DNA of 64,000 nucleotides from Verrucomicrobiota bacterium (GTDB taxonomy: Bacteria; Verrucomicrobiota; Verrucomicrobiia; Opitutales; Cerasicoccaceae): positions 64,001 through 128,000 of the forward strand of contig JBCBUK010000011.1 in NCBI GenBank assembly GCA_039818205.1, given 5' to 3'. Made by a program: the position numbers. Positions 36,001 through 39,000 of this stretch are shown in pieces (the stretch's first letter is position 1; each line of letters starts with the position of its first letter).

Positions 36001-39000
36001 ACTGGGCAACCGGATCGGTGAGCAGACTTTCCTTGGTCAGCTCAGCCTGTCTGTATTCGCAACGCATGTCAGCAGGATCGTTCATGCTGAGCATTGTTGG
36101 CTATAAACATCGGAAATGCAACGTGTTCGGTGGAGTCCAATGATTTCATGGCGATGATCGCGCCCGGATTCGAAGAATATGCATCGAAATACTTAATGTC
36201 TCAGGGCGCTAAAACCTCCTCGCAGTCTAGCGACTCGGCGGCGGATTCTAGGGCCGATGGTGGCGGTTGATCTTATCGTCCTGTAACTCTCCTAGCGTGT
36301 CAGGTGCACGATCTCCTCGTGCCAGTCGGGCCAGCCTTTGACGAGGTCGTCGCGGTCGCCGAGGATGAAGTCTTCCCAAAGGAATTCGGGAGTCACTACG
36401 ACACTTAGTAGGGCAAAGCCAAACTGCGCCCCGTCGGCGAGGCGGGATCCCTGCCAGCTGCCGGTGGGCACGACGGCCATGGGCTGGTCGCCCGCGGCGA
36501 GGCTCATGCCTAGGCGGCACTTTTCTCCGGAGCCGTCACCATGGAGCATCAGCAACTCGACGGAGTCGCCCGCGTGCCAGTGAAAGGTCTCGGCTGAGTC
36601 GATGAGTCTGTGCAAGGCGGAAAATCCGTCCTGCGTGATGAGGTAGTAAATCGCCGAGGCAACTGCCCGCGGCGGCGACGATTTGGTCGGAGGCAGTTGG
36701 CGTTGGTCGGTGTGGACTCGGCGAAACCACCCGCCCTCGTGGGGGAGGGGTTGGAGCGATAGCTCGCTGATAATTGTTTCAGCATTCATGGCAGTAGCAG
36801 CACCAGCTATGCTAGGTGTTAGCAGCGGCTTGGCAAGCGTGTCCCAGGAAAAACGGATTGCCAATGGTCAACAATGGCGGTTGAATTCCACGTTTGTCGC
36901 ACAAAAAAAGCCTGATTCGGGGAAGAAAGCGGCTTGACAGCCACGGGTGCGACCTATTTTTTCCTCTGTTTTCCATTTAATCAGCAATCCGCTTCCGATT
37001 TACTTTTTACCAGATCATGGCACTTAAAATTCGACTCCAACGCCACGGTTCCACCCACAATCCGGTTTACCGCATCGTGGTAACCGAAGCGCGTCACCGT
37101 CGCGACGGTCGTCACAACGAAATCCTCGGCAACTACAATCCACGTGCCCGTGGTAACGATGCTGAGTTGAAGCTCAACCTTGAGCGCGTCGATTACTGGA
37201 CCAGCGTTGGCGCCAAGCCAACTGATACGGCCCGCACCCTCATTAACCGTGCACGCCGCGCCGAGAAGGCCGCTGCCGAGGCCGCACCAGCCGAAGCCTA
37301 AGTCCGCGCTGACAAAGACTTCCTGTCCTGTATTTCTGGCCCCGGCAACTCGCCGGGGTTTTTTGTTGGAGGAGTCTATCGCTGTTTTCCGACAACGAGA
37401 CGAAATCCCGAAACGCATGTCTTTTAAGAGTTTCTAAACCGGTGATGTTTCTTGGATTTGTGTCGGCATGTTTCGCGTCTTGTATTGTATGCTCTTCCTG
37501 CCCAAAAATTTTGTGATGGCTTACGCAGTGAATAACCATGCTTCGATTTGATCTCATTACCTTGTTTCCTCGGATGGCTGAGGGCTTCCTGCAGGAAAGT
37601 ATGCTGGGGCAGGCCGCGAAGAACGAGCTGCTCGAAATAGGCGTGCACGATTTGCGCGATTGGTCGCAGAATAAGCATCAGACGGCCGATGACCGGCCTT
37701 TCGGTGGTGGTCCGGGGATGGTTTTGTCACCGGAGCCGCTGTTTTTGTCGATTGAGGAGGTCTCAACCCCGGGAGCCGAGGTCATTTTTCTCTGCCCAGA
37801 CGGCGAGCCGCTGTCGACTCCGATGGCGCGTGAATTGGCGCAGAAAGAGCACATTGTGTTGGTCTCTGGACACTACGAGGGGATTGACCAGCGGGTGCGT
37901 GATCACTTGGTTACGCGGGAGGTTTCCATTGGTGATTACGTGCTGACGAATGGCACTTTGCCTGCCTGTGTGCTGATTGATTGTGTGGCTCGATATGTTC
38001 CAGGTGTTTTAGGTGAAGAAAAATCCTTGACGCAGGACTCCTTTAGCGGCACTTTCCTCGGTTTTCCTCAATTCACGCGTCCAGCAGACTATCGTGGGAT
38101 GAAAGTTCCGGAGGTTTTGCTGAGTGGCAATCACGCCGCGATTGAAGCGTGGAGGCAGGAACAAAGTCTTTTAAAAACTCAGCAACGTCGGCCCGATTTG
38201 TTGGAGCGAGCAGCCAAAGCAGCGCCGCCCGATGAAAAGAGCCCCCATTAAGTCCACCACCAGTCATGCAAGCCTTACTTGAAGAAGTCACTTCGCACCA
38301 ACTCGATTCCAACCGCCTGAATTTCAAGGTTGGTGACGGGGTGCGCGTCCACACACGCGTTCGCGAGGGTGACAAGGAGCGTATCCAGATTTTCGCTGGA
38401 ATCGTTATCGCCCGCAAGGGTTCCGGCATCCGTGAAGCGTTCACGGTCCGTCGCATTAGCTTTGGTGAGGGCGTCGAGCGCGTCTTCCCCATTCACTCGC
38501 CCAACATCGACAAGATCGAAGTCGATCGCGAGTCCGTCGTTCGTAAGGCGCGTCTTTACTACCTGCGCGGCCGCATCGGTAAGGAAGCGACCAAGGTTAA
38601 AGAAAAGCGTTTGGTTGAAGCCGCTCGCAAGAAGTAAACCGCGAATAAGGAATTTATCATCATGGCGACTACCAACGTTTTACTCCTCCAGCCAGTTGAG
38701 AGCCTCGGTCACGAAGGTGACCAGGTGACCGTTAAGGCCGGTTATGCACGCAACTTTCTGTTGCCACGCAACCTTGCTTTGCCGGTTAACCGCGCAAACC
38801 AAAAGTACATCCAATCGCTTCAAGCTCGCAAGGAAGCCCGCCTCAAGCAGGAGCGCGAGCACGCTGAGCAGGTTCTTGCTCGTTTGGAAACCGTTTCCAT
38901 CGCGATCGCCGTAAAGACCGGTGAAGGTGGCAAGATGTTCGGTTCGGTGACTTCTCAAGACTTGGTTGACCGCTTGAAGGAAGACGGTATCGAAGTCGGG

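Follow-up and report, generated by a model that had tools for sequence, protein, structure and literature searches.

Staggered absence of the 30S maturation factors RimM, RimP and Era across the Verrucomicrobiota and in most Planctomycetota

A bacterium of the Verrucomicrobiota with a genome of 4.85 Mb has no detectable gene for the 30S maturation factors RimM, RimP or Era, and surveys of its relatives confirmed that these absences are genuine, hold up well at the sequence level, extend further than was first described, and are staggered rather than simultaneous. Neither this genome nor this locus is exceptional in this respect. The genome (G000; 4,853,681 bases in 66 contigs, with 908 bases left out) is 99.97% complete with 0.37% contamination, and its nearest named genus is Cerasicoccus (TrmD 87%, NusA 92%), which we take to be free-living. 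The window, the 64,000-nucleotide stretch of DNA that we analysed, spans positions 64001-128000 of contig C11, and in window coordinates its trmD region contains the following features.

37017..37301, plus strand: rpsP, ribosomal protein bS16, 94 aa (PF00886, E = 1.6e-23)
37302..37537, no strand: empty rimM slot, 236 bp, without rimM or khpA
37338..37360, plus strand: terminator-like hairpin after rpsP, 9 pairs followed by a T-rich tail (consensus match only)
37538..38251, plus strand: trmD, tRNA m1G37 methyltransferase, 237 aa (PF01746, E = 5.8e-67)
38266..38637, plus strand: rplS, ribosomal protein bL19, 123 aa (PF01245, E = 2.3e-43)
38662..39153, plus strand: rplI, ribosomal protein bL9, 163 aa, directly 3' of rplS (PF03948 and PF01281)

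The order of rpsP, trmD and rplS is that of the canonical operon, rpsP-(khpA)-rimM-trmD-rplS, but here both rimM and khpA are missing, a hairpin follows rpsP, and rplI, whose usual place is presumably with rpsF-rpsR, follows rplS. The 236-bp slot is too short for the ~170 codons of RimM, and in six frames the gap holds no remnant of RimM, KhpA or RimP, so the preliminary description of this operon as lacking rimM was correct. Its statement that the gene before nusA is not rimP also held, given that this gene encodes a 167-aa membrane protein and is followed by nusA-infB-rbfA in normal order. Terminator-like sites numbered 7 in the region, against a shuffle mean of 3.5.

We searched the whole genome as 65,374 six-frame ORFs of at least 40 aa with the HMMER filters off. 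No RimM (PF01782, TIGR02273; an N-terminal barrel plus a PRC barrel, ~170 aa) was found anywhere in the genome: Pfam gave no match at E ≤ 10, and profiles of 34 diverse sequences, and then of 39 with members from Elusimicrobiota, Sumerlaeia and Brachyspira added, reached best values of E = 2 and 3.6; all six held-out RimMs were recovered at E ≤ 3e-24. The genome likewise contained no RimP (PF02576; two domains, ~150 aa, usually encoded before nusA), the best match to a profile of 16 sequences (15 planctomycete and one other) having E = 0.49, while all six sequences held out from the same profile were recovered at E ≤ 2e-8. The earlier concern that diverged orthologues can escape family models is thus weakened by profiles that recover held-out members and still find neither RimM nor RimP here. 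Era (TIGR00436; one TRAFAC G-domain plus a C-terminal type II KH domain, ~300 aa) was also missing from the genome. A profile of 30 sister-class Eras matched only G-domains, those of Der (confirmed), which was the best match to the Era family, and of proteins assigned by size and motif as MnmE-, IF2-, HflX-, Obg- and FeoB-sized. With a profile of the KH part alone, the matches were limited to uS3 and a protein of RNase Y size, at E ~1, indicating that paralogous KH folds were visible to it and yet no Era appeared. RsgA, a circularly permuted GTPase with a zinc finger, was not found in the genome either, TIGR00157 giving no match and a 4-sequence profile giving only G-domain fragments. Family models and new profiles therefore upheld the claim that all four factors are missing here.

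The companion claim, that RbfA, KsgA and YbeY are kept, was likewise upheld, RbfA (an ordinary 122-aa protein) and YbeY passing the family-model cut-offs and KsgA being identified by motif only; in addition to the confirmed Der, an Obg-like GTPase was present by motif. The 16S rRNA is full length (~1,530 nt), and its functional core and GGAUCACCUCCUUU 3' end are standard. khpA was not found in the genome, the best profile match being the RNase Y-sized protein. Several other features of the genome may be recorded here. No EngB/YihA- or RbgA-like GTPase was seen in the profile matches or motif scans. The 1,719-bp contig C49 carries a second, different 16S gene, presumably plastid-like, with its 5' end duplicated and inverted, and is a small contaminant contig. 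A stop-free frame of 16,270 codons on the minus strand at C1:377975-426784 corresponds to a giant protein.

To place these absences we surveyed 301 Verrucomicrobiota genomes of at least 90% completeness, 101 of them in the class Verrucomicrobiia (the sum of family tallies f1-f18 plus G000, f15-f18 being placed by their order in the table) and the other 200 in the remaining classes. RimM, which had been described as absent across the phylum, was over the cut-off in none of the 301, a single sub-threshold match containing two stops. RimP had been described as absent across the class, which holds, but the stated range was too narrow, because in the whole phylum a single genome (G135) carried it, on a 2.4-kb contig whose foreign-looking neighbours, in what we take to be a Bacteroidales-like order, mark it as probably a contaminant. 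Era initially matched 107 of the 301 genomes. The sole match in the class (G300) was Der and was discarded, leaving 0 of 101 Verrucomicrobiia, as had been claimed, against 106 of 200 genomes in the sister classes. Within those classes Era was also missing from families f19 (0 of 47) and f26 (0 of 23), whose TrmDs were closest to named Victivallaceae and Lentisphaerae records, and which we refer to as Lentisphaeria-like. The Era survey scored 8 GTPase candidates per genome, and a rescan of all candidates in 5 genomes gave no match extending into the KH part.

RsgA behaved differently, occurring in 56 of 151 Verrucomicrobiota (26 of 51 in the class) and in 8 of 14 control genomes (7 of 10 bacteria). 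Three of the 10 bacterial controls thus lack it as well, and its inclusion in the set of missing factors is not justified. Era, RimM and RimP were missing together from 100 of the 151 genomes, with the RimP of G135 taken as a contaminant, and all four factors from 69. Because the distributions of the four factors differ, the proposal that they were lost together has to be rejected in favor of a staggered pattern. A profile scan of the same 151 genomes, with RimM and RimP alignments built from the nearest outside homologues and a threshold of E ≤ 0.3, gave RimM matches in 7 genomes and RimP matches in 26, all short except that in G135. The weak matches inspected (4 of 8 places for RimM, 10 of 28 for RimP) were unrelated proteins, those to RimP being LacI-type regulators, DnaN and others, and PRC-like matches in two relatives also proved to be unrelated proteins rather than RimM. 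As a positive control, a 50-aa family considered below was found in 148 of these 151 genomes.

Gene order was consistent with these counts. rimM occupied the slot upstream of trmD in 34 of 80 trmD loci, all of them non-PVC by record title or unlabelled. In 9 other Opitutales-type loci 43-142 bp separate rpsP from trmD, against 17 bp in one locus of Kiritimatiellia and 3 bp in one of Omnitrophota; in Cerasicoccus frondis the gap holds an unrelated 127-aa gene. khpA lay directly 5' of trmD in 8 genomes or named loci and in one Verrucomicrobiae locus; the Lentisphaeria-like genomes retain rpsP-khpA-trmD with rimM alone removed, their khpA often having a longer N-terminus. No conserved gene was present upstream of nusA in 80 Opitutales-type loci. 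Among the loci retrieved, Opitutales-type trmD or nusA contigs also occurred in bins labelled Polaribacter and Yoonia, which are probably misbinned, and one Chloroflexota locus read rpsP-khpA-trmD without rimM, which, taken with the low Dehalococcoidia fractions given below for RimM and Era, is a possible further independent loss.

Beyond the phylum, only one of 121 Planctomycetota (G414) carried RimM, and given its foreign-looking context, a 1.9-kb contig beside a transposase, this is likely a contaminant. RimP matched 16 of 101 Planctomycetota at E ≤ 0.01, of which 15 were real (~15/101) and one, a 519-aa enzyme, was dropped; none of these rimP genes has nusA within 1.5 kb, and three adjoin a Dus-like gene. 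Era was found in 7 of 101, and two genomes had both RimP and Era. Provided that the RimP and Era draws comprised the same 101 genomes, as their handles indicate, 81 of 101 lack all three factors, including the 9.1-Mb genomes G301 and G321; the claim that large-genome bacteria exist without RimM, RimP and Era is thus substantiated, in Planctomycetota up to 9 Mb. Omnitrophota had RimM over the cut-off in 0 of 71 genomes and RimP in 0 of 4, Poribacteria had RimM in 0 of 2 and RimP in 1 of 1, and Elusimicrobiota had RimM in 3 of 51, in the usual operon. For Planctomycetota, Omnitrophota and Elusimicrobiota completeness was requested in sampling, the individual values not being displayed.

Given that the three factors have no detectable genes, the 30S subunit must be built some other way in these organisms. 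The explanation that we consider fairly probable joins true stepwise gene loss to a 30S maturation route centred on RbfA, KsgA and YbeY; the mechanism taken on its own is more tentative, and could slightly more easily be wrong than right. RimM would have been the earliest to go, at the base of the PVC group or close to it, being cut cleanly from rpsP-khpA-rimM-trmD-rplS with khpA still in place in Lentisphaeria-like genomes. RimP would have been lost before the Verrucomicrobiota diversified and in most Planctomycetota, and Era later and repeatedly, in Verrucomicrobiia, two Lentisphaeria-like families and most Planctomycetota, while RsgA would have been gained or lost independently of the others. 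The ranges are observed to be nested; the order RimM, RimP, Era that we infer from them assumes loss rather than re-acquisition.

In this scheme RimM, RimP and Era would be catalysts of folding and guards of checkpoints rather than parts of the ribosome, and the PVC 30S subunit would be finished by RbfA, KsgA and YbeY acting on an unchanged 16S 3' end. RbfA has a KH fold and binds the 3' region to which Era also binds, and it would cover the platform checkpoint; Era overexpression reportedly suppresses the loss of rbfA in E. coli. Small changes in the head proteins uS13 and uS19 would ease assembly of the head. Suppressors of rimM defects in E. coli include extra rbfA and changes in S13, S19, h31 and h33b (PMC9032327, PMC3575805), which suggests that a lineage could fix such a state while relying on RbfA, KsgA and YbeY. 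Simple redundancy is argued against by the reports that no other 30S factor suppresses the loss of rimP and that Era does not suppress the loss of rimM (PMC9032327).

Several possible marks of compensation were considered. Gly82 of uS19 was present in 62 of 64 outside sequences versus 2 of 17 PVC-side sequences, this genome being among the two. The 80 listed matches without Gly82 came from PVC or Poribacteria (13), CPR (17), Actinomycetota (24) and others (26), 40 further matches carrying no titles. The change is thus enriched rather than specific as a mark of RimM loss, since among the matches listed Actinomycetota outnumber PVC or CPR, and Actinomycetota have RimM according to the eggNOG table of PMC10632474. 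Changes in uS13 near the suppressor region were set aside, the PVC side comprising only 7 sequences and the comparison being confounded by kinship. No alteration of the 16S 3' end, h31 or h45 was seen in comparison with an E. coli record too short for exact numbering. The YbeY of this genome maps as follows.

C19:27166-27663: YbeY

The third zinc ligand of YbeY, a His in the canonical motif, was instead Asp, Glu, Thr or Ile in all 8 of the PVC sequences displayed, 3 of 11 loci giving no motif match; the replacement occurs in Era-positive and Era-negative genomes alike, and was rejected as a correlate of Era loss. Two ribosomal proteins of this genome carry N-terminal or repeat extensions, uS11 (C3:339688-340272) a long acidic N-terminal one of ~65 aa and uS5 (C3:335500-336192) a Gly-rich repeat of ~70 aa. 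uS11 belongs to the platform, the site of action of Era and YbeY, and its extension may therefore bear on compensation.

Other explanations were weighed against this one. Assembly gaps or incomplete genomes might be suspected, given the 66 contigs here and the prevalence of metagenome bins among the relatives; this is already refuted by controls in the surveyed genomes (YbeY in 10 of 10, TrmD in 10 of 10, the 50-aa gene in 148 of 151), and the absence holds in hundreds of genomes of at least 90% completeness, single-contig ones included. It is very unlikely that the orthologues are still present but diverged beyond recognition and moved from their usual operons. RimM and RimP do evolve fast (20-37% identity inside the alignments used), and planctomycete RimPs, unlinked to nusA, score as weakly as E = 1e-3 with Pfam, but divergent held-out members were recovered at E ≤ 2e-8 or better, no weak match of the right size recurred across the 151 genomes, and the sole recurring weak RimM signal, in 13 of 71 Omnitrophota, was discarded as SecD/SecDF (6 of 13 inspected). 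Era in particular is hard to hide, because its G-domain would show in the list of GTPases. Some other substitute, be it a general RNA chaperone, a helicase or an essential PVC protein of unassigned function, might do the work, and essential proteins of unknown function do number 100 in V. spinosum and 151 in P. limnophila (PMC12283558, PMC10632474); with no candidate found and nothing conserved in the vacated slots, we regard this as distinctly unlikely.

A more specific proposal concerns the PVC signature small basic protein, which in this genome lies on another contig.

C3:239849-239998, minus strand: small basic protein, 52 aa (TIGR04137, 83.9 bits against a curated cut-off of 50 bits)

Acting as a lineage-specific rRNA chaperone or as an additional protein of the 30S subunit, it might have replaced RimM and/or RimP and eased later losses of Era, an idea to which we assign some, if small, probability. 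The protein is basic and highly conserved, and is reported as the one protein unique to PVC. Each of the four main PVC phyla reportedly has it (PMC3444138), a range that agrees with that of RimM loss, and in our samples it was present in 148 of 151 Verrucomicrobiota, 1 of 2 Omnitrophota and 0 of 14 controls. In 12 of 30 loci its gene adjoins that of an RsuA/RluB-family (rRNA) pseudouridine synthase; trmD is the neighbour in 4 of 30, all from one genus, and it adjoins era in 2 of 30 era loci, but lies beside ybeY in 0 of 11. RimM is, however, missing also from two genomes in which no such protein was found (Poribacteria G304, Elusimicrobiota G426) and from Patescibacteria (0.4%; PMC12641178), the protein is present whether or not Era is, and it has no solved relative, its model consisting of two short helices (pLDDT 72, pTM 0.44). 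We regard it as no more than a candidate helper, whose gene neighbourhood and charge would be compatible with an action on 16S rRNA or the 30S subunit. It is also conceivable, if unlikely, that there is a PVC-own 30S pathway, the ancestor of the group having dropped RimM and recruited the 50-aa signature protein as a chaperone of rRNA or an added small-subunit protein, making RimP and then Era repeatedly dispensable even at 5-9 Mb; such a pathway, if real, would account for the chlamydial losses with no need to invoke genome reduction.

Stepwise loss with a route centred on RbfA, KsgA and YbeY thus remains the reading that we prefer. Era is essential in E. coli, and each of the three factors occurs in 92-97% of non-CPR bacteria, so that their losses have been ascribed to genome reduction. 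That all three are missing across a large part of one superphylum, in genomes of up to 9 Mb, uncouples factor loss from genome size. There are hints that loss of RimM and RimP precedes loss of Era. PVC organisms, unlike CPR, allow one to ask which steps of 30S assembly truly need a catalyst, V. spinosum and P. limnophila being laboratory-grown and genetically workable, with transposon maps (PMC12283558, PMC10632474). Given that Era, RimM and RimP are all bac120 marker genes (PMC12641178), their absence is also systematic in PVC phylogenomics.

Part of the pattern is already visible, uncommented, in published data. In the eggNOG source data for Fig. S4 of Rivas-Marin et al. 2023 (PMC10632474), from which our Chlamydiia values are taken, the RimM fraction is 0 in Chlamydiia, Planctomycetia, Phycisphaerae, Opitutae and Verrucomicrobiae and reaches at least 0.83 in all the other bacterial classes listed, apart from Mollicutes (0.47) and Dehalococcoidia (0.4). 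Opitutae, Chlamydiia and Dehalococcoidia have an Era fraction of 0, and that of Verrucomicrobiae is 0.33, of Planctomycetia 0.55 and of Phycisphaerae 0.25; RsgA is at 0.9% in Epsilonproteobacteria and 20% in Alphaproteobacteria. The table supports our RimM result independently and conflicts in part with our Era counts outside Opitutae (0/101 in Verrucomicrobiia, 7/101 in Planctomycetota), perhaps owing to different genome sets or to other GTPases labelled COG1159. Its file does not include RimP (COG0779), and the main text, in the part available, never names rimM or era and gives neither an order of loss nor a mechanism. No statement of a PVC-wide lack of RimM, RimP or Era was found in the full-text literature searched, outside which lay most subscription papers and bioRxiv supplements. 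The PVC ancestor has been inferred to have lost about 75 genes (Hou et al. 2008, PMC2474590), and RimM may be among them. A V. spinosum-E. coli orthologue table without era and rimM was rejected as evidence; because rbfA, ybeY and rsmA are missing from it too, it says nothing on the two genes. The supplement of PMC12283558 classes two genes that are essential in E. coli, trmD and yqgF, as non-essential in V. spinosum, which is another sign of unusual translation requirements in the phylum.

The preliminary description had set these losses against the view that such factors are dispensable only in reduced genomes. This framing finds support in one review, the text of which limits Era loss to extremely genome-reduced groups (Chlamydia, Dependentiae, CPR), its section 5, as available, mentioning no Era-less class with large genomes (Gruffaz and Smirnov 2023, PMC10582724); but the sentence concerns Era alone, and a figure legend in the same review describes Era as patchy in Planctomycetota, Elusimicrobiota and Synergistota. 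On our data, the absence of Era from Chlamydia may reflect a trend across the PVC group and not follow from genome reduction. The minimal translation set of Mollicutes resembles the present case in that RimM and RimP occur in few species and RbfA in all, but these are reduced parasites, and all but the hemoplasmas keep Era (Grosjean et al. 2014, PMC4014445).

The closest comparison is with the Patescibacteria (CPR). Among non-CPR bacteria Era is found in 97.3%, RimM in 94.9%, RimP in 92.3% and RsgA in 83.9%, and in Patescibacteria RimM and RimP fall to 0.4% each, Era to 19% and RsgA to 6% (Amikura et al. 2025, PMC12641178; the supplement, in the part available, holds no per-genome factor table). 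The near absence of RimM and RimP, the patchy or frequent absence of Era, and khpA left beside trmD are thus features that the two groups share. In CPR, however, the genomes are tiny, Der, Obg and RbfA are also lost, and rRNA helices are shortened (PMC12641178), whereas here the genome has 4.85 Mb (5-9 Mb in relatives), RbfA and Der are kept together with an Obg-like GTPase, and the 16S rRNA is full length.
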